Shown here: positions 378 through 19,800 of the stretch, in pieces
Layout of the letters: each line of letters begins with the position of its first letter
Position numbering within the stretch: position 1 is the first letter of the stretch
Origin: a bacterium
GTDB lineage: Bacteria; SAR324; NAC60-12
Assembly: GCA_965233585.1 (NCBI GenBank)
Contig: CBDDTI010000476.1
Coordinates: forward strand, 1-22,674
Direction: 5' to 3'
DNA: 22,674 bases
Position numbers and translations under genes: made by a program
Notes under the pieces: model-generated
Told to the model about the DNA's origin: nothing
The model's input: only the letters and a program-made list of their open reading frames with translations
Databases searched by the model: none

Positions 378-380
378 AAT

Positions 381-2337: not shown

Positions 2338-2339
2338 TT

Positions 2340-2714: not shown

Positions 2715-2762
2715 TTTGACAGTTGCAATTTTTTATTTTTCTTAAATAGATATGAAAATCCT

Positions 2763-3278: not shown

Positions 3279-3287
3279 CCTCCCCCC
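3279..3287 (-). other. Polypurine tract GGGGGGAGG
   Basis: Purine run directly abutting the TG start of the 3' LTR. Confidence 0.88.
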
Positions 3288-3491
3288 AGTTTATAGCATC
3301 ATACCATTTAATGATGGTGTAAACTAAAGGGCCTGGATCCGGATTCAGAATGGGGTGCAGCATCGCGAGTATGTACATAACGTTAAAATACTTAATCGAA
3401 ATATGAAAGGAGGCACATAATACGTGAAGATAAAAGATAAGCGGAATATGAGAAACTGACGGTACGCGAATGGTTGGGTACGATTAAAATG

Positions 3492-3941: not shown

Positions 3942-4114
3942 TATTGGAGTGTGAGCACGAATGTGTGGAGTTTCCGGAGCAACTGGGTGATAGTCTCAGA
4001 TATCTCCGGATAGAATATGGTAGCTGCCAAGCACAGTGCTCCGATGATGCTGAGGATCAGTAAGAAGTCGATGACTTTGCACATCGCCGGGTTGACTGTG
4101 ACTGGCACTAACAT
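3941..4114 (-). CDS. 57-aa small hydrophobic membrane ORF (absent from the ORF track)
   Basis: MLVPVTVNPAMCKVIDFLLILSIIGALCLAATIFYPEISETITQLLRKLHTFVLTLQ*; ATG 3 nt after the pol stop; its TAA overlaps the next ATG (TAATG). Confidence 0.62.
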   Translation of the reverse strand: MLVPVTVNPAMCKVIDFLLILSIIGALCLAATIFYPEISETITQLLRKLHTFVLTLQ

Positions 4115-4117
4115 TGA

Positions 4118-7100
4118 TTACAATTTACGGAGAAATCTGCGATTGCGACGCAGAGTTGACCCGTCTGAGAATTTTACTACGTAAGATCTCTTATACGGCA
4201 GGCATTCATGAATGATGCCTCTCCGATTCCACTTGTGTGAAAGCATATCCTGACACAGCACATTGTCTCCCTCTACAAGATCTGGTTGTATGAATGCATT
4301 CCGATCAAACGACTTCTTCATGTCTCTATCGCGTTTCTCCCTGTCATTTCTCGCTCTGGCCATATCTATGGGGTCGTGAGCAACGGCCAATCTGGGTATG
4401 CATGTCCTTTGCGCCCTTCCGAACATAAGCTGGGCAGGGCTGAGGCCGCCAGGTCTTGGTACGTTCCTCCACTCCAGCAGGCTGGCCTCGAAGAGTCTCC
4501 AGTCTTCCCCACATTTCTGTAGGAGATGTTTGCAAATTTTTACACCACACTCGGCGTCGCCATTGGACTGCGGATAATGCGGCGAGCTGGTTTCATGTAT
4601 CATTCCGTGTCGAGCGCAATAGTCGTCAAATTCGCTTCGAAAGGCCGGCCCGTTGTCCGTCCTGATCGTTCTGGCAAATCCAAAGTTCATAAAGATTTTA
4701 TGCAGCTGATCGATGACCGCTTTGGCCGTCATCGATCGCAATGGCGCCGCAAACGGAAATCCGGAAAACCTGTCCATAACACAAAGGAAATGTTTGCCTC
4801 CGGAATCGAATATATCCACCCCCACTTGCTGTAAGGGGTAAGTTGCCACCGTGGGCTGCAGTTGCTGCTTCGGCAAGCTGGGCAGGTGGTACTGACAGGC
4901 TTCACAGGCCTTGACGAAGTTGTCGATTTCGTTTGCCATACCCGGCCAATGATATAGTTGCCGGAAGAGGGTCTTCATTTTTTCCGCTCCGCAGTGGCTT
5001 TTGTGGCCGTCTTGCAAGAGCCCCCTCCTTGCTTTTCTCGGCACCAAGACTTTGGTGCCATCAAGAACAATGAGTTTTCCATCCATGGTAGATAGTCTGT
5101 CCCATAGGCTTTGTAAGGACGCAGCTGGATGTTCGGCGGGTAAGTCATTGATCGACACATTTTGATTGATCGCTGCGAGCTGATGTTGGTACCCCTCATC
5201 CTCGTCAGCTGCCTCCAGAAGCTTCGTCAGGCCCGGATCCTCCACGCCAACTGCCTGGATGGAGATCCCATCTTCCTGATTTCTCGCCGCGAATACGGGT
5301 GCGCGGGATAGGGCATCCGCGATGTCGTGGATCTTCCCGGCTTGCCATGTCACATTGAAGGTGAAGTTTGCCAGCCGTTCACGCATTCTTAAAATCCGGG
5401 CATTCATTGCCTCATCCAAGGGTTTGGATAAAAGCGTAACAAGTGGCCGGTGATCGGTCACCACGGTGAATCCTGGGTGGCCGAGTAAGTAGTGCCTGCA
5501 CTTAAGAATTGCGTATTCTACGGCCTTCGCCTCTAATTCCACAGTGGACCAGTTCTCCTCCGCAGACGTCAAGGATCTGCTGCCGCATTGGATCAGGAAC
5601 CTTCGGCCAGCTTCATCCTTCTGTGTCAACGCAAACCCTAGGCCTTGTTTCTTCGAGGCATCGGTTAGCAGCTCTGTCTGTTTGCTCCTGTCAAAAAGTT
5701 TGACAACCGAGGGTGAGGTCAGCAGATCTTTCACCCTGGCAAATTCCTCCTCATGTTCAGGTAGCCAAAGGAAATTAACCCCTTGTTTCAGAAGATGCCT
5801 GAGGTTCATGGTCATATGGGAGAGATCCGGCCTGAAGTTTGCTAACTGATTGGCCAGACCAAGGAAGCTCCTCAATTCTTTCACACACGTAGGAGCTTTG
5901 AAGTCCGCTATTGCCTTCAACCTGCCAGGATCCGGCATGACTCCCTGCGCTGATATGATGTGCCCCGCAAATTTGACACTCTCGCTGATGCGAAATTTCT
6001 TCAAGGATACGATAACATTGTTCTTTTTACAGTTGGTGAGCACCGCTCTGATCCTGGCCTCGAGTGTTATAATGTCCGGAGCTGAAACAAGGACATCGTC
6101 AACAATTTTCTGGACACCTTCCAATCCCTCAATTACCTTGTCGGATCTGCAGCACCACTCATCCGATGATGCGTTGAGTCCCATCGGGGCCCGAAGGAAG
6201 CGGAACTTTCCTGACGGCAGCAAAAATGTGGTTAGTTTAGATGCACTTTCCGATAAGGCGATCTGATGATATCCTTGCACCGCATCCAGTGTAGCAAAGA
6301 CCCTACCATCGGGTGGTAGCTGTTGCAGAATATCCTTGGTGGAAGGGAAAGGGTGCACAGGCCTTTTCACATGCTGGTTCAGCCCGGTGTAGTCAACAAC
6401 CAGTCGCAAGTCCTTAACGGTCACCACCACCATTCCTTTTTTCAAAGCCTCCTTCACCTTAGGGTCTCCTTTCGGCACAAAAAAGGCGGGTGCGATCCAA
6501 TCCGTAGGGCCCTCTTCCTTGGTTATGACCTTTGATTTCAAAAGTGTGTCGATTGCGGTTGCAGCTGGGTCCTGCCAGTGCAACGGTACGGATCTGGCTG
6601 TCAAACACTTTCTTGGAATTGCGCCGGCTTTAAGGGTGATGTCCATCGGTTTACCTGCCATTGGGTTATCTGTGAGACCCTCCCCGAAGGTCCCCTCGAA
6701 TTCATCGATCAATCTACCCCTCAGCCGCTCCATGTGGTCATCGACATCGATTGCTGCCGTCTTGTTTATCCGAGCGGAGGGGAAAGACCTCGGCAAGACC
6801 TCCATCTCCTTAAGATCCCTTTCGGCGATTAGCATTTCCCTCGTCATCGATGATGTGATCAAGGCCATGATCGGAGTGACCTTTCCGTCAAAAGCTACCT
6901 TGATTGGGGAGCGTCCCTCGCATCTCATCCCCTCATTGTTAGCGGCGTAGAGCCTTTCCTTAGCCCGATACATGGGCAACCCGAACTTCTGGGCCAAGTC
7001 CAGGCTGATGATAGTCCTGGAGCTACCGGTGTCTGCACAGGCATTGAACGGAAACTTGCCATTGATGATGACCTTCACTCTAGGCGTTGCAGATTGATCG

Positions 7101-8446
7101 CAGATTTTTCTGACCGTGACTCTCTTGGCTTCCTCACCGAGCTCCTCCTCGGATTCATATTCAGGCGGCGGCACGTCCTCCATGTCCGACGCCTCCGTGA
7201 CGACAGCGCGGGCACGAGCCTGATCGTTGTTGCCTTGGCGCCCCGCCCGCTGCTTGGCTCGCTCTTTCTGACACGTCCGTTTCAGGTGTCCCACCGTCTG
7301 GCAACCGTGACAGGATGCCGTCTTGTGTTGGCAATCCTTGGCTTCATGGCTTTCACTCCCGCACCGTGTGCACCGGCCCTGCTCCCTCAACTCTTGCAGG
7401 GACGGTATGGGTCGTTTTCGTGGTTGCGGAGCGTTAGCCTGTTTTTTCTTGACGAACCTCGCAGCGGCAGATGGCTGGTCTATGGTTTTCACTGAGCTGG
7501 CCGCAACCTCATATTGATGTGCAATCTTGTCCAAGATCTCCATGGTGGGTGATTCTTCCTTGAGAAACCGCTCCCGTAGCTTCATGTCCACGGTGCCCGT
7601 GATGTACCGCATGACGTAAATGCCATCGGTGGACAGCTCCGATAGGGCGGCCTCATCGCCCAGCGCTTTCACCTTGGACGACCAGTCGCTGAAGGACTGT
7701 CCAGTTGTCTGCATAGACTCGAAAAACTCCACCCTCCTGGCAAGCAGGGGGTACTTCACAAGGAATTCCTCCTCCAAGAGACCCATGCAGGACACTTGCG
7801 TGTCAGATCCGAACACCGGCGTTGTCTCCTGGATCTTGGTTGACAGCTTCATCTCGAGGTGGATGTCGATAACCATTCGGAAATACGCCTGCTGTTCTTG
7901 GACCGACGCTGCCTCCATGTTAGAGCTCGTGAACCACGCCTTGAATTTCTTGCACCACGACTTCATTTCCACCGTATTGTGGTCTCGAGACAAGACGTGG
8001 GGCTCCAAAGCCTTGTTCGGTTTGACCCTGTCGGGCTTGGTCGCGGTCGTTGCCGGAGACGTGCCAGGCCTCTGTGACGGGCGTTCCTGGCCGGCCTCAA
8101 GCGCCCTGAGGATCCTGTTGACGGCCGCGTCCGCTCGGTCGGCCTCTGCATTCAACTCTACCTCCCTGTCGGCGTAATGCTCCTCATCCGCCGCCATGAG
8201 CTGCAAGTATTTCTCCTCTAGGGCCTCCATCTGCGAACGAATTTTCCCCAGCAGCTCTGCCAGGACCTCCATGACATGAGATGACGGCCTGCTGCCTGCC
8301 TCGTCTATTGCTTTAGTAGCTGAATTGATACGTCTCGTCAGGTGGCCTTTCATTGCCCGAATGGCATCCTTCATTGCCTTTATCTCACGGACAGGGACCC
8401 GAGGACCGAGACCGGCCTCATCAGAGGTGCCTTCGCTGTCCGACAT
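4118..8446 (-). CDS. gag-pol: Gag-Pol polyprotein (1442 aa)
   Basis: Two CCHC knuckles (CTRCGSESHEAKDC, CHGCQTVGHLKRTC), protease ADTGS, RT (LDAVQGYHQ, PMGL, IVDD), RNase H (TDAS, ELEA, TDH), integrase HHCC plus D,D(35)E (VDIF, TDNGPAF, NGDAE). Confidence 0.97.
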   Translation of the reverse strand: MSDSEGTSDEAGLGPRVPVREIKAMKDAIRAMKGHLTRRINSATKAIDEAGSRPSSHVMEVLAELLGKIRSQMEALEEKYLQLMAADEEHYADREVELNAEADRADAAVNRILRALEAGQERPSQRPGTSPATTATKPDRVKPNKALEPHVLSRDHNTVEMKSWCKKFKAWFTSSNMEAASVQEQQAYFRMVIDIHLEMKLSTKIQETTPVFGSDTQVSCMGLLEEEFLVKYPLLARRVEFFESMQTTGQSFSDWSSKVKALGDEAALSELSTDGIYVMRYITGTVDMKLRERFLKEESPTMEILDKIAHQYEVAASSVKTIDQPSAAARFVKKKQANAPQPRKRPIPSLQELREQGRCTRCGSESHEAKDCQHKTASCHGCQTVGHLKRTCQKERAKQRAGRQGNNDQARARAVVTEASDMEDVPPPEYESEEELGEEAKRVTVRKICDQSATPRVKVIINGKFPFNACADTGSSRTIISLDLAQKFGLPMYRAKERLYAANNEGMRCEGRSPIKVAFDGKVTPIMALITSSMTREMLIAERDLKEMEVLPRSFPSARINKTAAIDVDDHMERLRGRLIDEFEGTFGEGLTDNPMAGKPMDITLKAGAIPRKCLTARSVPLHWQDPAATAIDTLLKSKVITKEEGPTDWIAPAFFVPKGDPKVKEALKKGMVVVTVKDLRLVVDYTGLNQHVKRPVHPFPSTKDILQQLPPDGRVFATLDAVQGYHQIALSESASKLTTFLLPSGKFRFLRAPMGLNASSDEWCCRSDKVIEGLEGVQKIVDDVLVSAPDIITLEARIRAVLTNCKKNNVIVSLKKFRISESVKFAGHIISAQGVMPDPGRLKAIADFKAPTCVKELRSFLGLANQLANFRPDLSHMTMNLRHLLKQGVNFLWLPEHEEEFARVKDLLTSPSVVKLFDRSKQTELLTDASKKQGLGFALTQKDEAGRRFLIQCGSRSLTSAEENWSTVELEAKAVEYAILKCRHYLLGHPGFTVVTDHRPLVTLLSKPLDEAMNARILRMRERLANFTFNVTWQAGKIHDIADALSRAPVFAARNQEDGISIQAVGVEDPGLTKLLEAADEDEGYQHQLAAINQNVSINDLPAEHPAASLQSLWDRLSTMDGKLIVLDGTKVLVPRKARRGLLQDGHKSHCGAEKMKTLFRQLYHWPGMANEIDNFVKACEACQYHLPSLPKQQLQPTVATYPLQQVGVDIFDSGGKHFLCVMDRFSGFPFAAPLRSMTAKAVIDQLHKIFMNFGFARTIRTDNGPAFRSEFDDYCARHGMIHETSSPHYPQSNGDAECGVKICKHLLQKCGEDWRLFEASLLEWRNVPRPGGLSPAQLMFGRAQRTCIPRLAVAHDPIDMARARNDREKRDRDMKKSFDRNAFIQPDLVEGDNVLCQDMLSHKWNRRGIIHECLPYKRSYVVKFSDGSTLRRNRRFLRKL

Positions 8447-8497
8447 CTTTCGTCAGCTGATCTCCACAAACTGAACTGCGGCCCCTGACACAGGTTC

Positions 8498-8515
8498 ACT
8501 GCCGCAACTGCGCCA
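8498..8515 (-). other. Primer-binding site TGGCGCAGTTGCGGCAGT, probably tRNA-Ser
   Basis: TGG immediately follows the 5' LTR; TGGCGCAGT is complementary to the ...ACTGCG-CCA 3' end found in some animal tRNA-Ser; tRNA identity inferred. Confidence 0.75.
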
Positions 8516-8691
8516 TCTTTGCTTTGTTATATCTGTATTGTACTTTAGAGGCCTTTAATCATACACTTTTATAAGTTCTTCCATTTTAGACTGCCTTTCA
8601 TTTCATGAATCACTGGGTGTGGTTTCTATCTCAAAACTGAGTGGGGAATCTGTTGATTCCGGACTCACGCAACCTTTCATGCAATCTCACA
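8516..8691 (-). repeat. 5' LTR (176 bp) with TATAAAA at 8573-8567
   Basis: Identical to 3103-3278; followed by the PBS and the gag ATG at 8446. Confidence 0.95.
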
Positions 8692-9524
8692 ATTGTCTCA
8701 ATATTGGTTTGCCGCACTTGATAATATCTGACCTTTTTTACATTATGGTAAAAATAATGACCCTCCATTTGCTTAGGTAAAGTTGTTGTAAACATAATTG
8801 TGGAATAATTATCACTGTTAGGAACGTCGGAAATAATATTTGATTTTACGTGAACCAAACCGGGTTTTAAAACGGAATACACTTTATTTGCTATGGTTTG
8901 AAACCTAAAATTTTTTTGTAACGGATAATACACATATTCGTTGTCAAATACCTTAATTGTTTTTTCTCCAGAAAATAACACTCCGTCTTTATAACATCTT
9001 AACTTTATAATTTTTATTAAATGTTGATGAATTAGTAAGTATCTATTATAATTGTAATTTTCATTTTCCGACTCATTTTCAGTTTCTTTTTTAGGACCTT
9101 CTTCAATTATGTAGACTCTTTTATTTTCACCGTCTGATTTGACGTCACCACTAGTCAATTTCATTCCTTCCTTGTAAATATATTGCATCAAGTGCTGCAT
9201 TAATCTATATATTGTCAGATCCTCTTCATCTAAATCGGGCAAAACCCAAACGGATTTTGTCTGGTCTAAAATCTCGGTCTTTATCTCCTCTTCTGAAGAA
9301 TTTATAGATGTTAATTCGTTTTTTAGCATTATGACACCGGTTTGACCTTTTGTCATGGTTAATTGGTTGTAATTATAATGTAACCCCATAGATACTATTC
9401 CAATTTCCCATTCTCTATTTTTCAAATCTAAATTTTGCGGAAATAAATTGGTAAAGGAATTTAAAGTATTTTTGACGTCCGTATTGGAACCAGCGTTTGA
9501 CACGCAATAAATGTTATAATCCAT
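8692..9524 (-). pseudogene. Minor capsid (penton-like) protein, C-terminally truncated by the LTR
   Basis: N-terminus YNIYCVSN....KNTLNSFTNLFPQNLDL..EWEIGIVSM typical of Polinton minor capsids; after VRQTNIETI the ORF reads into LTR sequence. Confidence 0.8.
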
Positions 9525-9530
9525 TCCGCG

Positions 9531-10613
9531 TTATTGTGACACATCAACTACATCTTTTTCATATGTCCAACTAGGGTTTTTATACCCTTTCCATTTCACC
9601 AAAACCATTTTTTTGCCTGTTTTTTTATCTTTTTTTGTTCGTAAAATCTTTTCAATCACAAATAATTCCGGCTCATTCACGGGAGTAAGTTCACTCTCGT
9701 AAAAATTCCCTTCCAGAGTTTCATCCTGTTCTAAAGTTTCTAATTCATAAGTAGGTTTAGGCAAACGAGTAAAAATTGATTTTATTTTAAAAATTTCTTC
9801 CTTAAATTGTGGTGTAAAACCTCTGTCAAATTTTTCCTTCATTATGCTAATGCGCACGGTTTGACCAATTTTGTATTTCGGTCTTTTTCTTTTAAACTTT
9901 GAATAATGCAATTCCTGTTTTCTTCTAATGAGATAGGTCCGACCAGGGAGCTCGGCTTCAGCGGGTGACATCCCAATCATGCGATGTTTACGATTGTTGT
10001 AGGTATGAACAAGAAAGGGCAACGCATCGATGTACCTATCTGTATTTTCGTGAGTCATGTATTTAAACATCAGATTTTTTAAAGTTCGGTTAAATCTTTC
10101 CACAAAGGGGGCGTGCACAAAATTGTTGCTGTGTAATAGAAGAATGTTATTGTTTTTGCAGTAGGCTTGAAACAATTTATTCTTAATTTCTGCGCCCTTA
10201 TCAGCTAAAATTCTACGTGGAAACTTTTTTGCTCTTTTCATAATAGACTCAAATCCCTCCATAAAAGTTTTTGCTGTTTTATTTTTTAAGGGTTCTACAA
10301 ACGCGAATCGTGTAAAAATATCGATGGCTGTTAAAAGGTATCTATTTCCGTCATTTTCTTCGATCAAATTTCCTAAATCTATAAGATCAATTTGAAATTG
10401 ATATCTCTTATGATAAGCAAATGTCGGATTTCTAGGTTTAGGTAATTTTGGTTGTTTATGAAGTGTGTAAGAATCAGTTCCCTTTAACCATTCTTCAATT
10501 GTCGTCAAAGGAATTTTTTTTCCATAATAATAATAAATCAACGCAGGAGATGCAAAAGCTATTGGTGAGCCTGGTCTTGCATATTCTTTTAAAAAAATCT
10601 CTTTTGTTGTCAT
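9531..10613 (-). CDS. Maverick rve integrase with C-terminal chromodomain
   Basis: FQIDLID, IDIFTRFA, ADKGAE, VERFNRTLK, YNNRKH..IGMSP; chromodomain FVIEKIL...LVKWKGYKNPSW. Confidence 0.96.
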   Translation of the reverse strand: MTTKEIFLKEYARPGSPIAFASPALIYYYYGKKIPLTTIEEWLKGTDSYTLHKQPKLPKPRNPTFAYHKRYQFQIDLIDLGNLIEENDGNRYLLTAIDIFTRFAFVEPLKNKTAKTFMEGFESIMKRAKKFPRRILADKGAEIKNKLFQAYCKNNNILLLHSNNFVHAPFVERFNRTLKNLMFKYMTHENTDRYIDALPFLVHTYNNRKHRMIGMSPAEAELPGRTYLIRRKQELHYSKFKRKRPKYKIGQTVRISIMKEKFDRGFTPQFKEEIFKIKSIFTRLPKPTYELETLEQDETLEGNFYESELTPVNEPELFVIEKILRTKKDKKTGKKMVLVKWKGYKNPSWTYEKDVVDVSQ

Positions 10614-10619
10614 TTCTTT

Positions 10620-11021
10620 TTAAAACAGGGGTTGTTTAGTTATTCTCCGTCTTTTTTTCCTAGATTTAGCAATTGACGGGGTTTTCCTCTTTCTGCTCAA
10701 ATTTTGAGCCCGATATTCGTTGTCGGTATCTGCTTGTCTAGCAGCGTTAAGCAAAATACCGCGAGTAGCGGATTTTAAACGTTGTTTAGCTTTTCTGCCG
10801 ACCGGTTGACCCTCCAAAGCTTCTAATGCTGTTTCTACCACCGCCTTTGTCGCCTCTTTTTTTAAAGCTTTACCTGCGGATCTTATCGGCGCGCTTCTAG
10901 CCACTTTTCCAATAGTTTTTACCGCTGATCTTGCTACCGGCATTAAACCGCGAAAGATTCCGGAAAAAAGTGATCCGATTCCCGAGCCTCGTTGCCAACG
11001 TAAGCCGCTGTGGTAATTCAT
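10620..11021 (-). CDS. Basic core/precursor-like Maverick protein (133 aa)
   Basis: QRGSGIGSLFSGIFRGLMP N-terminal motif, Ala/Lys/Arg-rich body, basic tail. Confidence 0.75.
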   Translation of the reverse strand: MNYHSGLRWQRGSGIGSLFSGIFRGLMPVARSAVKTIGKVARSAPIRSAGKALKKEATKAVVETALEALEGQPVGRKAKQRLKSATRGILLNAARQADTDNEYRAQNLSRKRKTPSIAKSRKKRRRITKQPLF

Positions 11022-11029
11022 ATATTTTA

Positions 11030-11776
11030 TTAATGCTTTAGACTTTTAAGACATCTGTATAAAGACATAACACTAACGCCTAAAATACGAGCCGTATTTT
11101 TGACGCTCGGATATAGTGTTCTTGTTTCTTTTAAAAAGGCATAAGCACATGCTGCTAATAAAGTCCTAGGAGCAAAAGAACTATTTTCATTTTTATTCAG
11201 TTTTTCTTTTATAGTTGTCATCTCTTGATAATTTAACTGTAGAGGCTGTAAAAAATATTCTGCCATATCTTTTGCTTTTATAGAATTTTCTGTTTTAATT
11301 GTGTTGGTCGAATCTTGTCTGTATAATTTTATCCATCGCCATACCGTTTTTGGATTAATGCCAACTTCCTGACACAAATGACTTATTGGACGGGGAATTT
11401 TTTCCTCTATTAAACTTTGATACAATACCATAGCAATTAAGCCTTTCGGATTAATTTTAATTTTTCCATTTTTTTGATAATGCCACGCTGCTATTTCTGA
11501 CCACAAATTAAAAATAGTGTTTGTGACATCATTATTTAAATGTAATTTATTACATAAATTTTTTAAAATATTTTTTTCTTTCTTCAAATGTTCGCTGTTT
11601 TGTTCAAATTCTTCATTTAAATTTTTTATTTTTTCCCATTTTATTTCTAAATTTGGTTCACAATATATTTTATCAATAACTAAACCACACTCAGTACACA
11701 CTACGTCTCCTTGTCTGGTGTCTTCTATTATATATTGATGAATGCACATTTTAATCCAATCTAATTTTTTGAACAT
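11030..11776 (-). CDS. TFIIB-like transcription initiation factor (start at 11776 or 11749)
   Basis: Zn ribbon CIH...EDTRQGDVVCTECGLV; two cyclin-like repeats (LCNKLHL...MVLYQSLIEEKIPRPISHLC; PRTLLAACAY...ARILGVSVMSL). Confidence 0.88.
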   Translation of the reverse strand: MFKKLDWIKMCIHQYIIEDTRQGDVVCTECGLVIDKIYCEPNLEIKWEKIKNLNEEFEQNSEHLKKEKNILKNLCNKLHLNNDVTNTIFNLWSEIAAWHYQKNGKIKINPKGLIAMVLYQSLIEEKIPRPISHLCQEVGINPKTVWRWIKLYRQDSTNTIKTENSIKAKDMAEYFLQPLQLNYQEMTTIKEKLNKNENSSFAPRTLLAACAYAFLKETRTLYPSVKNTARILGVSVMSLYRCLKSLKH

Positions 11777-11856
11777 AATTCCATTGTTTATTGAATGAAG
11801 TTCAAAATTTGACTGAATTTACAAATAAACCAACGTAATCTTTTATTATATTGAAT

Positions 11857-12399
11857 TTATTCGGTTTTATATTTTTTCAGCAATTCATAAATAATTTTTA
11901 TTCCTTGTTTAGCGTCTTCTTCGCTGGAAGCTCCAATTATTACTATTTTTCCAGACGAAAATATTAAAGCAGAACACTTCTTTAATGTTAAAAACATTCC
12001 AGGAAATTTCTCAGAGTCGTATCTCTTTTGGATAATCCCAAAATCTACATTTAATTTCAAATTGTTGTAAAATGTTAATAAATTGATTCTTGATGACATT
12101 TGACACAAACAAGTCATGTTTTCTATTTTAAACTTTTCAGTAATAAATTTACTACTTATAACAAGTTTTAATTCGTCTAATGCTTTTGGTATATGCTCTG
12201 TGGAAGGGATTTTAGTGATATTTACGTGGAAATTTCGACTCTGTTTTGTTTTGGTAAACACAATAAAAGAATATTTTTTTTTAACAACAGTAAAATTATT
12301 ATAATGTTTTATTACATTATCGGTATTAAAAGAAATTTTGTCGCTGTCGATGAGACGAATTTTGCAACTGATTTTAACATTGCTGACCATCACTTCCAT
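11857..12399 (-). CDS. TATA-binding-protein-like factor (~180 aa from ATG 12399)
   Basis: Two TBP repeats: VSNVKISC / IENMTCLC, RYDSEKFPGMFL, ALIFSSGKIVIIGA. Confidence 0.88.
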   Translation of the reverse strand: MEVMVSNVKISCKIRLIDSDKISFNTDNVIKHYNNFTVVKKKYSFIVFTKTKQSRNFHVNITKIPSTEHIPKALDELKLVISSKFITEKFKIENMTCLCQMSSRINLLTFYNNLKLNVDFGIIQKRYDSEKFPGMFLTLKKCSALIFSSGKIVIIGASSEEDAKQGIKIIYELLKKYKTE

Positions 12400-12406
12400 C
12401 TTTGGT

Positions 12407-13756
12407 ATGGGCTTGCCCGATAAAAGCGGAATTGCTGGATTGGCCGTGGAACAAAACGATGGCACAGAAAGTGGTTTAGCGCTTCACGCACCCTTAGAAG
12501 TAGAAACGGGTCTATTGGAAGGGGCTCACGTTATTTACAATAGCGTGGCTTCTATCACTAACACTGGACCGGTAGAATTTCTTGTTCCTCGCGACAACGA
12601 GTGTTCTTTTATACTGAGTCAAACCAGACTTAGTGGACATTTTGTAGTGACAAATGATGACGGCGGCTTTGTCACGGACGCAAGTAAAACTGCGTTGGTA
12701 AATCATTTTGCTGCTTGTTTATTTAGTCAAGTGGAAGTATATTTGAACGGTGTTCAAGTAGCTGATTTGAGTTCGGCGGTCACCTACCCCTGGAGAATGT
12801 TTTTACAATCATATTTAAGTTACAATATTGACGTAAAAGACACTTATCTGGCTGCTGAAGGATATTATCCTGAAAATGAAGACGAAGTTACTGCTACCAA
12901 AATTACTGAAGACGTTTCCTCTCATTCTTTAAAAAAAAGAAAAAAGTTAATTTTAAACGGAAAAAAAGTATTTTTCAACTCGCGTATAGCCGTTGATCTG
13001 TTTGACACTGATCGATTTTTACCTCCAAATGTGGATATCAAGATAAAATTGGTTAGATCGGCTGAAACATTTGGTTTGCTTCAAGATCCTGCAGCAGCAA
13101 AACCTTTCAAAATTGTGTTGAAAGATGTCAAATTGCATATGAGAAAAGTGTTGCCCACGTTGATAATACGAGAAAGTTTCAAAAACAAACTTTTAAAAGA
13201 ACCGTGCTACCTACCTTTCAGCTCTACACGTTTAAGACATTACGTTATTCCTCAAGGCGTGTCGTCTTTTAACATCGCTAATATTGCTAATGGAACATTA
13301 CCCAAACAAGTGTTTTTTGTGATGGTTCACAATCAGGCTATGTCGCATGCTCCCGACAAAAATCCTTTTAATTTTCAACACTTTAATCTTTCCTCATTTA
13401 ATTTAAAAAAGAACGGGCAATGCGTATTTCCCAAACCTTTTCAACCTAACATAGGAGAGGGGGACGTTGTTGACTTGTATCGGCATTTATACGACAGTAT
13501 AGGTATTTCGCACGGCAATCAGTCCATTGGCTTGACGTATGATGCTTTTATAAATGGAAGATTTTTTCTGGCGGCCGACTTGACACCGGATCAATGTAAT
13601 TCGTACCACACACATCCGGAAAATTATGGAAATTTAGATTTAGAGTTGGCTTTTTCCCAAATCACTCCTCATCCAATATACGTTCTAGCCTTATCTATTT
13701 TTAACTCCGGTATTAAAATAGATCAATTTCAACAAGTCATGAAAGGAACCAATTAA
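12407..13756 (+). CDS. Maverick major capsid protein (double jelly-roll)
   Basis: GPVEFLVP, VNHFAACLFSQVEVYLNG, RFLPPNVDIKIKL, KNPFNFQHF, GNLDLELAF motifs; ~450 aa; likely start ATG 12407. Confidence 0.92.
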   Translation: MGLPDKSGIAGLAVEQNDGTESGLALHAPLEVETGLLEGAHVIYNSVASITNTGPVEFLVPRDNECSFILSQTRLSGHFVVTNDDGGFVTDASKTALVNHFAACLFSQVEVYLNGVQVADLSSAVTYPWRMFLQSYLSYNIDVKDTYLAAEGYYPENEDEVTATKITEDVSSHSLKKRKKLILNGKKVFFNSRIAVDLFDTDRFLPPNVDIKIKLVRSAETFGLLQDPAAAKPFKIVLKDVKLHMRKVLPTLIIRESFKNKLLKEPCYLPFSSTRLRHYVIPQGVSSFNIANIANGTLPKQVFFVMVHNQAMSHAPDKNPFNFQHFNLSSFNLKKNGQCVFPKPFQPNIGEGDVVDLYRHLYDSIGISHGNQSIGLTYDAFINGRFFLAADLTPDQCNSYHTHPENYGNLDLELAFSQITPHPIYVLALSIFNSGIKIDQFQQVMKGTN

Positions 13757-13759
13757 AAT

Positions 13760-14242
13760 ATGGAGGGCGGGTTATCAAATATCTTTTTAAACAATTACAT
13801 TCGACCCAGATGTAAGAATTTCATCGGGGTATTTTCGGTCGACGACTTGCCATCTGATCCGTTCACATTGCCTTGCTGTCTGATCGCTAACTTATCCAAA
13901 AGAAATCAAGAAGGATCTCATTTCGTAGCAATGTACATTAACAAAAAAAATCAACTCTATTATTTTGATTCTTTCGGTTTTTTACCACCGATATGGAATA
14001 AATGCCTGATGAAGTTTTTACGACCCTGGATAGAGAAGAATTCCTTCAAAATTATCTTATCTCACCCAATTCAGAGTTTCCGTTCTTTGTTTTGCGGATG
14101 GTACACGTGCGCATTTTGTTTATCTGTGGGCAACAATTTAATGACCCCTCAACAATTCGTTAAAATATTTGTAAAAAATCCCAAATCAGAAAATGATAAA
14201 ATTGTAACTCATTTTATAAAAAAAATTGAAAATAAATGTTGA
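13760..14242 (+). CDS. Adenain-like cysteine protease, copy B
   Basis: His (GSHF), Asp (YFDSFG), Gln/Cys (IQS..SLFCGWY); AATAAA at 14231. Confidence 0.94.
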   Translation: MEGGLSNIFLNNYIRPRCKNFIGVFSVDDLPSDPFTLPCCLIANLSKRNQEGSHFVAMYINKKNQLYYFDSFGFLPPIWNKCLMKFLRPWIEKNSFKIILSHPIQSFRSLFCGWYTCAFCLSVGNNLMTPQQFVKIFVKNPKSENDKIVTHFIKKIENKC

Positions 14243-14254
14243 TATATTTTACTT

Positions 14255-15715
14255 TCATAACTTTGGATATTTTCCTGAAAAAAGTTTTTTAACAGAATCT
14301 GCTTTAGCTTCTGATTTAGACATTTTTCTTGTTTTTGATCTGGTTTTTGCGGGAGACATACCAGCTTCAATAGGGTCCCTTTTTGTTGGGCTTCTAGATT
14401 GAAACATTTTCATTGATTTTGATCTGGTTTTGGTTTGTGCAGGAGTCATGTTAGCATCAGCGGAATTTCTTTTTGTTGCGCCCTTCGACTGGGCTTTTCC
14501 AGCTGAAAATCGTATTTTAACAGGTGTGAGTGGAAATGAAGGAGAAGAGCTTCCAATTCCTCTTAATCTTCTTTTTCGAGGGGTAGAGGTCATTCCAAAA
14601 ATTTTATTCTGATCTCTTACAGACAATTCTTTATAATGATCTTTCATCATGTGTTTGGCAAATTGTGGAATGCCGACATATTGCTTCCCGCAATTGGGAA
14701 AGGGACAAACTATTTTGCCAGCCGCATTCTTTTCTTTCACTGCTTTCGCAATAGGTGTATTTCGCCATTTTAACACAACGGGAGATTTTATTGCGGAAAG
14801 TGCGTATGAGTAATCCATTTCGTTTGAGCTGTTTGTTCTAGCGTAAGGACTGGAAATCATTCCTTTAATGGTCTTTTTGTCTTTCAAAGCTATATCTTTA
14901 GGATGATCTTTTAGCAAATGTTTGCCTAATTGTCCTTCGTCAACATATTGCTTCCAACAATCAGGAACTGGACAAACTAATTTGCCTCTTGAATTTCTTT
15001 TCGTCATCGCTTCTAAAACAGGTGTTTCTCGCCATTCTTCCCGTTGGGTACCAACAGGAGTTGAATAAGCTGATTCGTTCGGACTTTTTGTTTTTTCAGG
15101 ACTAAGAGATTTTTCTGCAACAGATTGTCTTTCAATAATGGGGGTACTAGGTAAATTATTTTCTTCTTGTTGGGGAATTTCAGTGGGTGTTCTGTAAAGA
15201 GATACGTCCGTGAGATCCATATTGGTATCAATTCGAGCAGGTGTTAGTGCATTTGGTATTTCTTCTCGTTGCGTAATTTGGGTGGATGGAGATCTTGAAA
15301 CAGGGTGGTAAGCGCGGTCAATACTGCTACCTTTTTGGGTAACTCGACCAGGTGACATTACATTCTGTATTTCTTCTCGTTGAGGGATTTGAGTGGATGG
15401 TGATCTTGAAAGAGATTGGTAAGTACGACCCATGCTATCAGATTGGGCGATTGATGTGACATTCGGTAATTTATCAGACCCAAAACGAAGTAATTTATCT
15501 CCAGTTTGGATTATTTTCTGTCTGTCTTGTAGATTTTTAAATTTAATGGCATTTTCAATATAGTTGGTTGTTTCCGGTTTTTCATTCATAGAAATAAGTT
15601 CCTTTTTTGATTCATCGTCTTCCGTATTTTTTATTAATGAATAATATAATCTTTTAGGTACTAAAAACATGGAATACATCTCATCATGCGGTTTTATTTT
15701 TATTCCTGAACTCAT
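14255..15715 (-). CDS. 2xC2H2 zinc-finger, S/T-P-rich basic protein (~486 aa), copy B
   Basis: CPVPDC..H..KDH and CPFPNC..H..KDH; ATG 15715 lies one base after the upstream stop; MFLVPK N-terminal motif. Confidence 0.85.
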   Translation of the reverse strand: MSSGIKIKPHDEMYSMFLVPKRLYYSLIKNTEDDESKKELISMNEKPETTNYIENAIKFKNLQDRQKIIQTGDKLLRFGSDKLPNVTSIAQSDSMGRTYQSLSRSPSTQIPQREEIQNVMSPGRVTQKGSSIDRAYHPVSRSPSTQITQREEIPNALTPARIDTNMDLTDVSLYRTPTEIPQQEENNLPSTPIIERQSVAEKSLSPEKTKSPNESAYSTPVGTQREEWRETPVLEAMTKRNSRGKLVCPVPDCWKQYVDEGQLGKHLLKDHPKDIALKDKKTIKGMISSPYARTNSSNEMDYSYALSAIKSPVVLKWRNTPIAKAVKEKNAAGKIVCPFPNCGKQYVGIPQFAKHMMKDHYKELSVRDQNKIFGMTSTPRKRRLRGIGSSSPSFPLTPVKIRFSAGKAQSKGATKRNSADANMTPAQTKTRSKSMKMFQSRSPTKRDPIEAGMSPAKTRSKTRKMSKSEAKADSVKKLFSGKYPKL

Positions 15716-15716
15716 T

Positions 15717-16091
15717 TTAACGACGACGTCGCGAACTCTTATTCGCAATAATTTGAGCCAAAAGAGGGATGACGGTGCTGGCGATCGCTGATAAAACTCC
15801 TAAAATTCCGCCCTTTTGTAATATTTTTCTTTTTTTTGAAATGTCGGAAGAACGACGCGGCGGTGCAGCAAGACGTCTAAATTCTACCAAATGAGCTCTT
15901 ATCTTTTTTTGAAGACGTGTTCGTACTTTGCCATGTATGGGCAAGTCACCGTTCAAAACGTAATGTAATATACGACAAAGTAATTCAACACCGCGATCGT
16001 CCAAATGGCTTAAAAAATTTGCACAATCCTGATGTTTTAATTTTTTTATTACATTAAAAAGCGAACTAGCTTTTCCTAATGTTTTAGACAT
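15717..16091 (-). CDS. Small basic Maverick protein (124 aa), copy B
   Basis: QKGGILGVLSAIASTVIPLLAQII amphipathic tail; intact in both copies. Confidence 0.82.
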   Translation of the reverse strand: MSKTLGKASSLFNVIKKLKHQDCANFLSHLDDRGVELLCRILHYVLNGDLPIHGKVRTRLQKKIRAHLVEFRRLAAPPRRSSDISKKRKILQKGGILGVLSAIASTVIPLLAQIIANKSSRRRR

Positions 16092-16138
16092 TTTGACAAT
16101 TGCAATTTTTTATTTCTCTTAAATAGATATGAAAATCT

Positions 16139-16834
16139 TTAAACAGTAACGTAAGCTTTCATCAGACCCTCGTACGGAAAAATGTTGCTTCGAATTCTGA
16201 CTTTATCGTCTTGTTGTTGATGGAAATCTAAAAGGAGATATCCGTGACTTCGACCGTTAACAGCTTCCCTGTATGCTTTATTTAAAATCCCGACTCGTCC
16301 GGGGAAAATTTGTTTAGCCAAATGTGCAACCGCACTTCTGTCCCGAGGATTGTTAAAAAGGACCATATACTGTGTGTTTATGCTTAATGTCCGCAAATCA
16401 CCTTTTTTATCAAATAGATTTTGACACAGAAAAACGGTGAAACAATTGTAGTGATGAGTCAAAACCGTAAAAAAATGTTTTAATATTTGTCCAACATCGT
16501 CTAAATAATCGTCAAAAACAACTAATTTGGGCATTTTTCTTGGATATGATTCCAAAATATCTTTCAATTCTTCAATCGAATTTGGAATACTTTTAAATTT
16601 ACGAAATGTTGGAAAGCGAGAGTTTGAACGTTTGTCTCGATTCATATCTTCTTCCATGTATTCATAAGCTTTTTGCGGTTCTTTGTAGAACAACAACATT
16701 GTTTCTGGCGGAGTTGCAAAATATTCGTGCCTACCAACCACTAAATGTTTAAGCCACGTTGTTTTTCCACTCGATGTTGGGCCAACAATTAACATGTTGG
16801 AAGGAATACTGAACCTTAAATCAAAACCATCCAT
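16139..16834 (-). CDS. A32/FtsK-like DNA packaging ATPase
   Basis: Walker A IVGPTSSGKT, Walker B VVFDD, LCQNLF, NPRD; likely start MDGFD at 16834. Confidence 0.95.
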   Translation of the reverse strand: MDGFDLRFSIPSNMLIVGPTSSGKTTWLKHLVVGRHEYFATPPETMLLFYKEPQKAYEYMEEDMNRDKRSNSRFPTFRKFKSIPNSIEELKDILESYPRKMPKLVVFDDYLDDVGQILKHFFTVLTHHYNCFTVFLCQNLFDKKGDLRTLSINTQYMVLFNNPRDRSAVAHLAKQIFPGRVGILNKAYREAVNGRSHGYLLLDFHQQQDDKVRIRSNIFPYEGLMKAYVTV

Positions 16835-16898: not shown

Positions 16899-19800
16899 TT
16901 ATTTACAAATATGGCATTTAGACGATTTGTTGTTGACAATAAGACAATTTCCTAGTGATAAAGTGTGATATCCGCAATTCAAAATGTGTCTTTTGGAATC
17001 CATTGCTGATAACGCAATCTTTCTTTGAAAACATGTCCGAATTTTATGATTCTTCGATCTTAAGTTTTTGAAAGATTTGTAAATTAGAACAGTCTGTTTC
17101 AGACATTTTTTGTAATCGTTATAGGACAATTGCTTTTTTATGCTAGATTTTTTTAAACCTTTGCAAATTTTCTTTTCTTCTGTTTTGTTTTTGTCTAAAA
17201 AATCAGTAATTTTCATAGAATAACATTTTGGACGTAAGCCTATAAAGTGAGTAATAGCTGCTCTGCCTTTTAGTTCGTCTTTGAAATAAAAAAGCTGATT
17301 GGCTCTACTGTCATCGAAAAGAGGATGTTGTTTGGGGTACTTTGAAAAATCAAATATGTGCTCCAATTTTTTCATTTCCCTTTCCAAGTTGTTGCATCTT
17401 ACTTTTAAAAGAAAAGAATCCGTGTCTGAGAAACATAAAGACACATTTTCTTTACCAAAATGTTGTTGAATCGTGTCATAATACGATCTGTACATAAACA
17501 ACTTGGACAATTCCAAAATAGAAAATCCAACGGCTAAAGGCTTCTTGAGCTCTATTATTGCTGGCTTCTTGTTGACAGCCACCAAGTTCTCATTGATGAT
17601 TTGAAAACTGTTGATGTGTTGACCAAGACTGGCTTTCCTTAAGCTTTGTTCATCTCCACAAAGGACCACTTCAGAGTAATTTCGAACATTTTCTGAAATG
17701 CAGAATAAGATTTATTTTATAAATAAATATATTGTTTTAAAAGAAAATTGATTATGCGCGCAAACACCTCAGCTAACTAGCCGTCCTATATCACATTTCA
17801 TTTTCCTCTGTAATTAGCAATGTGCTATAATTTACTACAATTTGAGATCATTCCGTTTTTTAAGCCCGACATAAACGGTCATCAAAAATTCTCACAAAAT
17901 AAACACCAAGTCAAAATGGATAAAAAAGACCAGGAAAAGAGCAAGGCTTTTTGGTTAAAAGTGATAAAATCAGGTCAGGAGGAGGCAACTTCAAGTCCGA
18001 CTTCTGGCAGTAGCTTTACTGGGGCTGCGGCTGGGGGAGCATGGTCATCTACTAAAACTGGGGGAGCATGGTCATCTTCTGGGGCTGCGGGTGGAGGAGC
18101 ATGGGCATCTTCCGAGCGTCCCGTGGCTCCTGCTTGGCCATCACGGACCCCGTACAAAGTCCGTCCCACAAAAATCAGGGTCGGAGTCGTGGAAGAGCAC
18201 ATCTACTGTCGGAGCCGGGGGTGGGGGAGCATGCTCATCTACTAAAACTGGGGGAGCATGGTCATCTTCTGGGGCTGGTGTGGGGGGATCATGGGCATCT
18301 TCCGAGCGTCCCGTGGCACCTGCTTGGCCATCACGGACCCCGTACAAGTCCGTCCCACAAAAATCAGGGTCGGAGTCGTGGAAGAGCACATCTACTGCCG
18401 GAGCCGGGGGCGGGGGAGCATGGTCATCTACTAAAACTGGAGGAGCATGGTCATCTTCTGGGGCTGTGGGTGGAGGAGCATGGTCATCTACTAAAACTGA
18501 GGGGGCATGGTCATCTACTAAAACTGCGGGAGCATGGTCATCTTCTGGGGCCTTGGGTGGGGGATCATGGGCATCTTCCGAGCGTCCCGTGGCACCTGCT
18601 TGGCCATCACGGACCCCGTACAAGTCCGTCCCACAAAAATCAGGGTCGGAGTCGTGGAAGAGCACATCTACTGCCGGAGCCGGGGGCGGGGGAGCATGGT
18701 CATCTACTAAAACTGGAGGAGCATGGTCATCTTCTGGGGCTGTGGGCGGAGAAGCATGGTCATCTACTAAAACTGAGGGGGCATGGTCATCTACTAAAAC
18801 TGCGGGAGCATGGTCATCTTCTGGGGCCTTGGGTGGGGGATCATGGGCATCTTCCGAGCGTCCCGTGGCACCTGCTTGGCCATCACGAACCCCGTACAAA
18901 TCCGTCCCACAAAGGTCGGAGCCGGAGTCATGGGATGAGCAGACCTCTCATCGCGTGTCATTTGATTTGTCTTCACAATCGACATCAAAATCTAAACCAC
19001 CACCCTATCGTCACGTGGAACCTTCACCGACGCCAGAAGTGCGTCAAGTAACAGCATTTCCATCGGTGTGGTCTCCGTCTACAGCTCGAAAAGTTACCAA
19101 AAAAAATTAAATTTAAATTTTGATCATTTTTCTTTTTCCTTTTAATTACAAAATAAACTCAACATTTTATAAAAATTGATTTTTCAAAAAGTTTGCGTAC
19201 TTGACTAATTAATTTCGCGAATTCTTAATTTAATATTGATTTAATATTATGAATATTTATGAGATAATTTGCTAATTAATATGTAAAGGTTTGGAGATTC
19301 ATTTTCTAAAATTGACAAAACCATGCGGGAAAATTCAAAACAAATTTTTAGAGAAGGAAGAGGAGAAGGAGAAGGAAAAGGAAAATGGACAAAGGAAAGT
19401 TGGGGAGGATGATGAGGAGGGGGAAATACGAGGTATTAAAGGTAAAATGGACGGAAGAGGAGGAGGAGGAGAGGTTCAAGCTGTTGCCGGACCCACCATC
19501 GAGCGAGGCACCGCCGCGTCCGCCACTGATGGGAGGCGGTGGCCGTCTTAGACGGTTCGCCAGGGGCTTGATCGAGATGATCAGGACGGCCGCCGCCTCC
19601 GTTGCCGGCTCCATCACCGGACGTCCGGACGTCATCCCCGTCGACGTCATCCCCGCCAACGTCATCGGCCCCGCCAACAAAGCCGAGGCCAAAGACGACG
19701 ACGATGACGATTTTGACATCGGCCCCGCCAACGAAGCCGATGATGCCAAAGACGACGATGACGATTTTGATGAGGCTAAGTGTGTGGTTGGTGCCGGCAG

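Follow-up and report, generated by a model that had tools for sequence, protein, structure and literature searches.

Mavericks/Polintons are generally assumed to depend on their host for all transcription, and we know of no account of how their genes are switched on. Two adjacent genes at positions 11030–12399 of a 22,674-nucleotide stretch of DNA (here called the window; contig CBDDTI010000476.1 of GenBank assembly GCA_965233585.1) raise the question of whether such an element may carry promoter-recognition factors of its own, as a sequence-only reading had claimed in describing a Maverick/Polinton that encodes a TBP and a TFIIB. Profile searches, structure prediction and fold comparison confirmed that one gene belongs to the TBP family and the other to the TFIIB family, and conservation among relatives shows a long-conserved pair of element-owned homologues of both basal promoter-recognition factors. 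These findings suggest that the pair steers host RNA polymerase II (Pol II) to the element's own genes. We place the probability that it constitutes a private promoter-recognition pair, recruiting host Pol II independently of TFIID, TFIIA and TAFs, at about one half.

The gene pair and its element

The TBP-like gene (11857–12399) and the TFIIB-like gene (11030–11776) are ATG-to-stop open reading frames of 180 and 248 amino acids plus stop, both on the reverse strand. A spacer of 80 nt on the same strand (11777–11856) separates the TBP-like stop from the TFIIB-like start and contains an A/T-rich TATA-like run at 11841–11850, which was read from the sequence and carries no statistical support. 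The GC content over 11001–12500, which takes in the pair, is 0.278–0.280 compared with 0.33–0.39 in the neighbouring element genes, and the earlier description of the two genes as adjacent, co-oriented and AT-rich is thus borne out. The pair is flanked on one side by a basic 133-residue open reading frame (10620–11021, reverse strand), the putative 'core protein' of the sequence-only reading, which matched no family in Pfam or NCBIfam, and on the other by a major-capsid-like gene on the forward strand (12407–13756; 449 amino acids).

The capsid-like protein has 180 relatives, the closest of which are 446–450 residues long. Because of these lengths the start of the gene is placed at 12407 and not at 12350, and the start codons of the capsid-like and TBP-like genes therefore lie head-to-head, 7 nt apart. 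Those of its relatives that carry names come from a beetle, an octocoral and a tubeworm, share about 30% identity with it and are annotated as 'F54H12.2-like' or as hypothetical proteins. We take 'F54H12.2-like' to denote Polinton capsid proteins; the term 'F54H12.2' itself was not found in the literature searched. A retrovirus-type integrase with a C-terminal chromodomain is encoded at 9531–10613 on the reverse strand (rve, 37.7 bits with the cut-off at 32.6; Chromo, 24.7 bits, slightly short of its cut-off of 25.1). Two further genes gave weak matches below cut-off, namely an adenain-like cysteine protease (13760–14242, forward strand; Pfam Peptidase_C5, E = 0.019) and a packaging ATPase of the A32/FtsK-like type (16139–16834, reverse strand; Pox_A32, E = 9.7e-4; FtsK_SpoIIIE, E = 6e-3). 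On these features the pair lies in a Maverick/Polinton-like element, in which the integrase scores above its cut-off and the capsid module of capsid protein, ATPase and protease is a putative assignment. The chromodomain integrase implies that the element probably leads a nuclear life.

The remaining part of the element, a presumed protein-primed DNA polymerase B (16899–22673, reverse strand) whose motifs were recognized by eye only, is split between reading frames into six or more pieces (stop-to-stop open reading frames) and is interrupted by a GC-rich insert at 17712–19988; an Endonuclease_7 domain (Pfam) lies within the same region at 21596–22024. No polymerase match was obtained for these pieces in Pfam at E ≤ 0.01 (all six) or at E ≤ 10 (four), or in the PDB (two). 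Neither end of the element is intact inside the window, since an LTR retrotransposon truncates one and the other lies beyond the window's edge, and a search of the window for inverted repeats at least 60 nt long found none. The copy is decayed, with its polymerase fragmented and one end cut by the retrotransposon, and for this reason the function considered here is that of the element family and not of the locus in the window. The element is integrated in multiple copies and belongs to a multi-copy Maverick/Polinton lineage. The neighbouring genes of two element copies in the window gave dN/dS values of 0–0.46, and the family has probably been active recently. None of the 22 open reading frames and pieces scanned from the window matched an RNA polymerase family in Pfam, in agreement with the earlier statement that the window holds no RNA polymerase gene.

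Inspection by eye of the regions upstream of ten genes (11 candidate start codons) for a shared promoter motif revealed only an A-rich start context. A candidate 9-mer common to the 80-nt spacer and the capsid upstream region was not enriched (three occurrences against 1.08 expected; nine of 100 shuffles reach three).

Structure and conservation of the two proteins

The Pfam TBP family (PF00352) matched only residues 89–177 of the TBP-like protein, corresponding to one repeat, with a score of 69.4 bits where 22.9 is the cut-off (E = 2.4e-19), and it matched all 24 members of the TBP-like family. All 35 PDB sequence matches at E ≤ 0.01 were TBPs, and the NCBIfam archaeal TBP model aligned residues 4–177 with its positions 10–183 of 184 at E = 3.3e-15, a match that falls short of the curated cut-off of the model. 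The AlphaFold model (pLDDT 92.0, pTM 0.82) gave TBP chains at ranks 1–44 of a Foldseek search of the PDB (best E = 1.2e-10, TM scores of 0.55–0.70), in alignments of 190–199 columns that cover whole TBP cores at sequence identities of 19–29% to the solved TBPs. Taken together, the model and the fold matches show two tandem repeats forming one saddle. The top ranks of the fold search thus bear out the family assignment of this protein and, as described below, that of its neighbour.

The C-terminal repeat (11860–12135, reverse strand; residues 89–180) includes the stirrup Y127–G134 and the residues F132 and F147, and 18 of its 92 columns are invariant. The N-terminal repeat (12136–12399, reverse strand; residues 1–88) has 21 invariant columns out of 88 and makes up the other half of the saddle in the model; it is diverged, had no Pfam match, and an hhalign comparison of the N-terminal and C-terminal halves of the family gave a match of only five columns (E = 0.21). 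It is the predicted fold that identifies this half as a TBP repeat. Helix H1 is absent from it in the AlphaFold model, with residues 17–28 forming a loop.

The motifs on which the sequence-only reading had based its assignment are all present in the translation: VSNV (N7), IENM (N94), YNNF (F36), FIVF (F48), EKFP (F132), LIFS (F147) and YDSE (127–130). Residues N7, N94, F36, F48, F132, F147, Y127 and E130 are invariant in all 24 family members. The residues F132 and F147 align with phenylalanines of archaeal TBP repeats in the PDB alignments, and N7, N94, F36 and F48 were assigned by pattern and strand position only. The six residues are candidates for the paired asparagines and the four DNA-kinking phenylalanines of TBPs, and the N-terminal repeat is not recognizable by sequence. 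The first acidic position of the C-terminal stirrup is variable within the family, and an invariant lysine takes a position at which cellular TBPs have leucine; given these two differences, the stirrup interface may be altered.

Viral proteins also appear among the fold matches of the TBP-like protein: giant-virus TBPs, an asfarvirus B263R homologue and, at ranks 37 and 43, the herpesvirus proteins BcRF1 and UL87. The clusters nearest to the pair in the Atlas by language-model features are virus-labelled TBP and TFIIB-like clusters, the taxon labels being drawn from few members and without alignment. Such neighbours are what would be expected if the polymerase served by the pair were not host Pol II but, most interestingly, that of a large DNA virus infecting the same cell, much as virophages depend on such viruses, and poxvirus VITF-3 is described as a TBP/TFIIB-like pair acting in promoter recognition and working with the viral polymerase (PMC12917281). 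Identity to the viral TBP models is nevertheless 18% or less, below that to the cellular and archaeal TBPs, the Atlas labels are thinly founded as noted, and a chromodomain integrase with multi-copy integration fits life in the nucleus. We consider service to a polymerase of another kind improbable, and host Pol II remains the preferred partner.

In the TFIIB-like protein, the zinc-ribbon family Zn_Ribbon_TF (PF08271) scored 31.4 bits (cut-off 29) and the TFIIB repeat (PF00382) 17.7 bits, under its cut-off of 23.6; across the 19 family members the ribbon was matched in every case and the repeat, at E ≤ 0.01, in eight. A profile of the family matched human TFIIB with E = 7.8e-7 across the ribbon and both cyclin repeats. 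The AlphaFold model (pLDDT 69.9) has three short strands followed by two five-helix sets (pLDDT about 73–87), and Foldseek returned TFIIB, Brf1 or TFB chains at ranks 1–32 (best E = 3.9e-8), with cyclins from rank 33.

The zinc ribbon (11663–11746, reverse strand; residues 11–38) carries the ligands C11, H13, C27 and C30, invariant in all 19 members, and 13 of its 28 columns are invariant. The first cyclin repeat (11303–11596, reverse strand; residues 61–158), with five helices and 26 of 98 columns invariant, aligns with residues 112–206 of human TFIIB, and the profile alignment of the two repeats together spans residues 112–285. The second (11033–11275, reverse strand; residues 168–248) also has five helices, with 32 of 81 columns invariant and a strongly conserved terminal helix-turn-helix (HTH).

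The best fold matches of this protein are human TFIIB, with Brf1 and Brf2 at slightly weaker E-values, and strong HTH-type matches occur in both cyclin repeats, including HTH-type Pfam matches at residues 224–246. Both observations would suit a role outside Pol II initiation, either as a TFIIB-like factor of the kind used by Pol III or Pol I or in DNA bending and binding within replication-origin, integration or packaging complexes. The protein stops, however, at the last helix of the second cyclin repeat and has no Brf-type C-terminal extension, and its best matches by both fold and sequence are to TFIIB itself; such a role is judged quite unlikely beside recruitment of host Pol II.

Between ribbon and core lies a short linker (11597–11662, reverse strand; residues 39–60) in place of the B-reader and B-linker. 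None of its 22 columns is invariant, the model falls below a pLDDT of 50 over residues 36–60, the spacer from C30 to L71 varies from 40 to 51 residues across the family, and the whole region occupies 30 positions of the family profile compared with 66 residues in human TFIIB. A conserved B-reader and B-linker are thus absent from the 19-member alignment and from the comparison of the profile with human TFIIB. The zinc ribbon and two cyclin repeats reported from sequence are upheld, and the B-reader, then called divergent, is better described as short and unconserved.

In cellular systems the zinc ribbon of TFIIB is the part that docks on the polymerase, and the B-reader and B-linker are needed by Pol II for start-site selection and DNA opening. 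The short linker therefore speaks against a role with Pol II that is canonical in every respect. Together with an N-terminal TBP repeat that has diverged past sequence recognition and lacks helix H1 in the model, it would also be compatible with interference, in which the two proteins serve as a decoy or as a repressor, either shutting down host transcription by occupying TATA-like promoters or titrating Pol II or host factors, or silencing the element itself through unproductive complexes unable to open DNA. The most conserved region of the TFIIB-like protein is nevertheless the polymerase-docking ribbon, and a decoy that simply blocks DNA has no need of a TFIIB conserved alongside it and constrained in both cyclin repeats. 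We judge interference the least improbable of the competing functions, though still unlikely. The same two features, namely divergence of the N-terminal TBP repeat and absence of a conserved B-reader and linker, suggest that the promoter-recognition pair is a pared-down, element-specific platform rather than a copy of that of the host.

Relatives and co-occurrence

Searches yielded 36 relatives of each protein at 95–45% identity, 24 of them full length for the TBP-like protein and 21 for the TFIIB-like protein. The shortened remainder (12 of 36 and 15 of 36) and the decay of the copy in the window, with its fragmented polymerase and LTR-retrotransposon truncation, might suggest that the genes are non-functional passengers, whether recently captured from a host or drifting neutrally as relics. 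This explanation was already disfavoured and is considered very improbable: full-length reading frames persist down to 45% identity with their functional residues invariant and with conservation patterned by domain, identity to solved TBPs is only 19–29%, and the short relatives of the TFIIB-like protein form a large and old family. With an identity to solved TBPs this low, the genes are not recent host captures. The findings that would have overturned the earlier claim did not appear: the folds match, the genes are not near-identical to host genes, and there are relatives at 95–45% identity that retain the functional residues.

The large family that includes the TFIIB-like protein has no name and comprises 477 cluster representatives at E ≤ 1e-3, with a median length of 232 residues (calculated from 127 retrieved representatives of 190 residues or more). 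The C-x-H spacing of the first ligand pair is common to 100 of the 118 that bear a ribbon. In a FastTree analysis of 150 TFIIB-like rows the 19 members of the family group in a single clade with a support of 99, and the sequences around it are highly divergent; the rows include no labelled eukaryotic TFIIB or Brf sequences, and the tree is uninformative on origin.

Contig sizes suggest that other copies of the element also carry the TBP and TFIIB genes in company with the capsid gene. Between the match lists of the three proteins, four contigs per pair of lists have exactly equal sizes, compared with 0.07–0.11 expected, and one size, 8,156 nt, is common to relatives of all three (54%, 52% and 73% identity for TBP, TFIIB and capsid, respectively). 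One of the equal sizes is 1,526 nt, too short for both whole genes, and some coincidences may be spurious. A search of a bacterial and archaeal genome collection gave eight loci from 25 pattern matches, all of them archaeal TFB genes that match by their ribbon motif; none is a copy of a Maverick.

Proposed mechanism and known systems

In the mechanism that we propose for the element family, the TBP-like protein would bind the A/T-rich core promoters that the element carries and bend them. Its TFIIB-like partner would then dock on the conserved C-terminal TBP repeat and, through its cyclin repeats, on the flanking DNA, and its conserved zinc ribbon would bring in host nuclear Pol II. Genes of the element, such as the capsid gene 7 nt from the TBP-like gene, would in this way be transcribed without host TFIID, TFIIA or TAFs. 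A more far-reaching version, which we regard as tentative and distinctly less likely, is an orthogonal platform private to the element, in which the TFIIA- and TAF-facing half of TBP is remodelled and paired with a mini-TFIIB (a C-x-H ribbon and no B-reader), such that the two proteins recognize each other and the promoters of the element, not those of the host, and load host Pol II without TFIID, in archaeal style within an animal nucleus. If this version were true, the short TFIIB-like proteins, with their 477 representatives, would mark a widespread and undescribed strategy among Polinton-type viruses.

The statement that TBP and TFIIB are not canonical Polinton genes holds for the literature searched, with a qualification for TBP. 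No description of a TFIIB gene in a Polinton was found in the literature searched, in which co-mentions of Polintons and TFIIB concern giant viruses or marker sets. The text of the paper of Starrett et al. on adintoviruses and midsize eukaryotic linear dsDNA (MELD) viruses contains no occurrence of TFIIB and has TBP-like gene labels in figure legends only, in its section on non-animal datasets; a TBP-like gene had thus already been named for MELD viruses. A conserved TBP/TFIIB pair would provide a testable handle on the activation of Maverick/Polinton genes, consisting of two small proteins, their promoters and Pol II. The size of the short TFIIB-like family and its common ribbon signature suggest that the strategy reaches well beyond the element in the window, and the family may bear on the origin of the transcription factors of large DNA viruses.

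Compared with cellular TBP and TFIIB and with archaeal TBP and TFB, the element pair has the same folds and domain order, with candidate paired asparagines and phenylalanines and with four zinc ligands. It resembles the archaeal system in that both proteins are small and the TBP has no extension at its N terminus. It differs in its diverged N-terminal TBP repeat, which lacks helix H1 in the model, in a linker that is unconserved and about half the usual length, in the size of the TFIIB-like protein (248 residues compared with 316 in the human TFIIB chain) and in being encoded by a mobile element without a polymerase. The first ligand pair of the ribbon is C-x-H, whereas that of the canonical TFIIB ribbon is more widely spaced.

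The encoding of TBP- and TFIIB-type factors by a DNA virus is shared with the Nucleocytoviricota, as in poxvirus VITF-3 and asfarvirus B263R. Members of that group have a multisubunit RNA polymerase of their own, and their transcription takes place in viral factories or the cytoplasm, whereas the element has no polymerase gene among the reading frames scanned and integrates into chromatin, and its TBP is at most 18% identical to theirs. Another parallel is offered by the beta- and gammaherpesviruses, in which a TBP mimic is reported to bring host Pol II to late promoters (PMC12529657, PMC6541308). The late-gene complex of these viruses (ORF24, BcRF1, UL87) likewise places a TBP-fold protein in a nuclear DNA virus without a polymerase of its own. 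The herpesvirus mimics are large and far more diverged and work with five other viral factors, none of which, to our knowledge, is a TFIIB homologue; the element TBP, in contrast, is small and near canonical and has a true TFIIB-family partner. If the proposed mechanism is correct, the Maverick/Polinton pair would represent, alongside the herpesvirus late-gene complex, a second and simpler case of a nuclear DNA virus replacing host promoter recognition.

Fold assignment of the two proteins

The TBP-like gene (11857–12399, minus strand; 180 aa) and the TFIIB-like gene (11030–11776, minus strand; 248 aa) are two co-oriented, uninterrupted ORFs, as the sequence-only reading had described them, and are richer in A/T than any other part of the element (GC 0.278–0.280, against 0.33–0.39 in the flanks). 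Every TBP motif listed in that reading is present in the translation. A Pfam search with the TBP-like protein gave a TBP match of 69.4 bits (cut-off 22.9) involving residues 89–177 only. All 35 matches in a PDB sequence search (E ≤ 0.01) were TBPs, the best being archaeal (E of 4.3e-16 with the single sequence and 2.1e-21 with the family profile), and both repeats of every target fell on the C-terminal repeat of the query. The NCBIfam archaeal TBP model is collinear with residues 4–177 (E of 3.3e-15), yet scores under its cut-off, and hhalign gave no significant similarity between the N-terminal and C-terminal halves. An AlphaFold model built from a 24-sequence alignment (pLDDT 92.0, pTM 0.82) displays the strand–helix pattern of two TBP repeats, with residues 17–28 modelled as a loop at the site of helix H1 in repeat 1. 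A Foldseek search of the PDB with this model returned TBP chains at all of ranks 1–44 (190–199 columns, TM-scores of 0.55–0.70, 19–29% identity), and this predicted fold settles the TBP-family assignment that had been claimed from the sequence.

The ribbon of the TFIIB-like protein scores above the Pfam cut-off (Zn_Ribbon_TF, 31.4 bits versus 29) and the TFIIB repeat below it (17.7 bits versus 23.6). The family profile aligned with human TFIIB (E of 7.8e-7) twice, once over the ribbon (human residues 22–46) and once across both cyclin repeats (human residues 112–285). In the model (pLDDT 69.9) the ribbon and linker are poor and two five-helix sets are decent (about 73–87). Foldseek placed TFIIB chains from human pre-initiation complexes first (E of 3.9e-8), ahead of Brf1, archaeal TFB and Brf2, with cyclins appearing only from rank 33 on; TM-scores are low (about 0.37), which we attribute to the relative domain placement in the model. 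The ribbon match, the five-helix sets and the best fold match uphold the earlier description of a zinc ribbon with two cyclin repeats. The protein has neither a conserved B-reader/linker, the stretch between ribbon and cyclin repeats, nor a Brf-type tail; the linker region spans 30 profile positions in this family, compared with 66 residues in human TFIIB.

Layout and state of the element

Two Maverick/Polinton-like copies of one family, each partial, are found in the window, with positions 1–3107 and 13381–16481 sharing 96.3% identity. In the fuller copy, a 297-aa ORF with no assigned function (8631–9524), an integrase with rve and chromo domains (9531–10613) and a basic 133-aa ORF (10620–11021) lie on the minus strand together with the TFIIB-like and TBP-like genes. 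A capsid-like gene (12407–13756) and a weakly adenain-like protease (13760–14242) follow on the plus strand, and a C2H2 zinc-finger protein (14255–15715), a 124-aa ORF (15717–16091) and an A32/FtsK-like ATPase (16139–16834) on the minus strand. Relatives of the capsid-like protein number 180, and the few named ones are hypothetical or 'F54H12.2-like' proteins from a beetle, an octocoral and a tubeworm (∼30% identity); we take these to be Polinton capsid proteins. The zinc-finger protein (486 aa; 444 aa in the first copy, 876–2210, minus strand) contains two C2H2-type fingers and internal 94-nt repeats, and may be another DNA-binding regulator. The genes between 9524 and 16840 are tightly packed, with several stop-to-next-start gaps of 1–8 nt and most ATGs preceded by A-rich sequence, raising the question of how each ORF obtains its own mRNA.

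The fuller copy is non-autonomous. Its presumed DNA polymerase B, identified by eye only, is fragmented into at least six frame pieces (16899–22673, minus strand), in which neither Pfam nor a PDB sequence search recognized a polymerase, and is interrupted by a 2.3-kb GC-rich insert (17712–19988, GC up to 0.58) containing ∼4 tandem 276-nt units at 18033–19049. One piece (21596–22024, minus strand) matches the HNH-type Endonuclease_7 family (Pfam E of 7.2e-7, 29.5 bits, cut-off 23.6). The 297-aa ORF is cut off by a young Ty3/gypsy-type LTR retrotransposon (3103–8691, minus strand), with 176-nt LTRs that are 100% identical (3103–3278 and 8516–8691), a primer-binding-site-like run adjoining the 5′ LTR and a 1442-aa gag-pol ORF encoding protease, RT, RNase H and integrase. 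No target-site duplication was found at this retrotransposon, and its flanks derive from different element copies, being an ATPase gene at one end and the 297-aa ORF at the other; this points to either an assembly join or recombination between two insertions. Close to the window's left end, the capsid reading frame of the first copy is shifted. Despite the decay of the copy around them, both the TBP-like and the TFIIB-like frame are intact.

Conservation, linkage and origin

A word-indexed search (E ≤ 1e-3) yielded 36 relatives of each protein (from 75 TBP-like and 277 TFIIB-like candidates), whose identities run in parallel from 95% to 45%. Full-length sequences account for 24 of the 36 TBP-like relatives (177–189 aa; 12 truncated) and 21 of the 36 TFIIB-like relatives (239–258 aa; 15 truncated); 23 and 18 of these, respectively, were aligned with the window proteins, the relatives P0004, P0040, P0044 and P0046 being omitted as close variants of included sequences. 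Invariant residues include N7, N94, F36, F48, F132, F147, Y127, E130, K131 and P133 in the TBP-like family, and C11, H13, C27 and C30 in the TFIIB-like family. Invariant columns number 21 of 88 in the N-terminal and 18 of 92 in the C-terminal TBP repeat; in the TFIIB-like family they number 13 of 28 in the ribbon, 0 of 22 in the linker, 26 of 98 in cyclin repeat 1 and 32 of 81 in cyclin repeat 2. Intact frames of 180 and 250 codons at ∼50% divergence, with constraint patterned by domain, are unlike the product of neutral decay, and the pair being neutral relics is disfavoured by the conserved frames and invariant residues. Between the two copies, dN/dS in neighbouring genes is 0.22 (protease), 0.46 (zinc-finger protein) and 0.20 (124-aa ORF), and part of the ATPase has 0 non-synonymous and 8 synonymous changes; these values indicate that the element family diverged while still under selection.

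Linkage in other copies was gauged by exact coincidence of 'longest contig' sizes between relative lists, against a jittered null. Four coincidences were observed for each pair of lists, with 0.07 expected for TBP and TFIIB, 0.11 for TBP and capsid and 0.11 for TFIIB and capsid. A size of 8156 nt is common to one TBP-like (54% identity), one TFIIB-like (52%) and one capsid (73%) relative, which suggests that the three genes are linked in a divergent lineage. The measure is imperfect, since one coincidence (1526 nt) is too short to hold both whole genes.

Run with HMMER against 1.84 billion cluster representatives, the TFIIB-like profile matched 477 proteins at E ≤ 1e-3, of which 118 reach E ≤ 1e-10 and 14 reach E ≤ 1e-30. 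Among 147 representatives read, 127 have at least 190 aa (median 232 aa) and two reach 300 aa; 118 carry a ribbon-like Cys/His pattern, with C-x-H as the first pair in 100, as in the window protein. Of 30 representatives scanned with Pfam, 19 contain a recognizable TFIIB ribbon or repeat and 11 contain neither. The ribbon motif also matched short TFB-like ORFs (about 210–230 codons) in Sulfolobales genomes (36–52% ribbon identity). Among predicted viral structures, giant-virus TBPs and a B263R homologue from an asfarvirus matched the TBP-like model, with weaker matches to herpesvirus BcRF1 and UL87; identity is ≤18% throughout, below that to cellular TBPs. The nearest Atlas clusters by language-model features, which serve as leads only, are virus-labelled TBP clusters and TFIIB-like clusters. 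From the wider family and the viral structures, the pair seems to represent basal factors of an old viral lineage; recent host capture is at odds with an identity to solved TBPs of only 19–29%.

Proposed role and comparison with known systems

What is established comprises the two folds and, within the families, the conservation of the zinc ligands, of the candidate paired Asn and DNA-kinking Phe residues, of the C-terminal TBP repeat and of the ribbon. The sequence-only reading had proposed a private pair redirecting host Pol II. In such a scheme, the TBP-like protein would bind the element's A/T-rich core promoters, its C-terminal side and flanking DNA would be bound by the TFIIB-like protein, and the ribbon would then recruit host Pol II; we give this a probability of roughly one half. 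The short linker and an altered stirrup argue against a fully canonical role, and the pair acting as a decoy or repressor is an alternative, as is a non-Pol II or purely architectural role. The family's invariant Ile and Pro, aligned with human TFIIB, occupy positions that we take to be basic TBP contacts; if they are, the alignment offers a lead that the TBP–TFIIB interface may have been remodelled, in keeping with a private pairing. The upstream regions of the element genes yielded no promoter motif in common. The TBP-like (minus) and capsid (plus) start codons lie head-to-head, 7 nt apart (12399–12407), so each core promoter must fall within the other gene's coding sequence, or further off with splicing. 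The polymerase engaged might alternatively be that of a helper virus.

The proposed recruitment of host Pol II by this pair is modelled on the herpesvirus TBP mimic (PMC12529657, PMC6541308). Figure legends in the non-animal dataset section of the adintovirus/MELD-virus paper name TBP-like genes, and a search of literature outside subscription journals found no Polinton or Maverick reported to carry a TFIIB homologue. Virus-encoded basal transcription factors are a known kind; the variant here is their occurrence in a polymerase-less integrating element.
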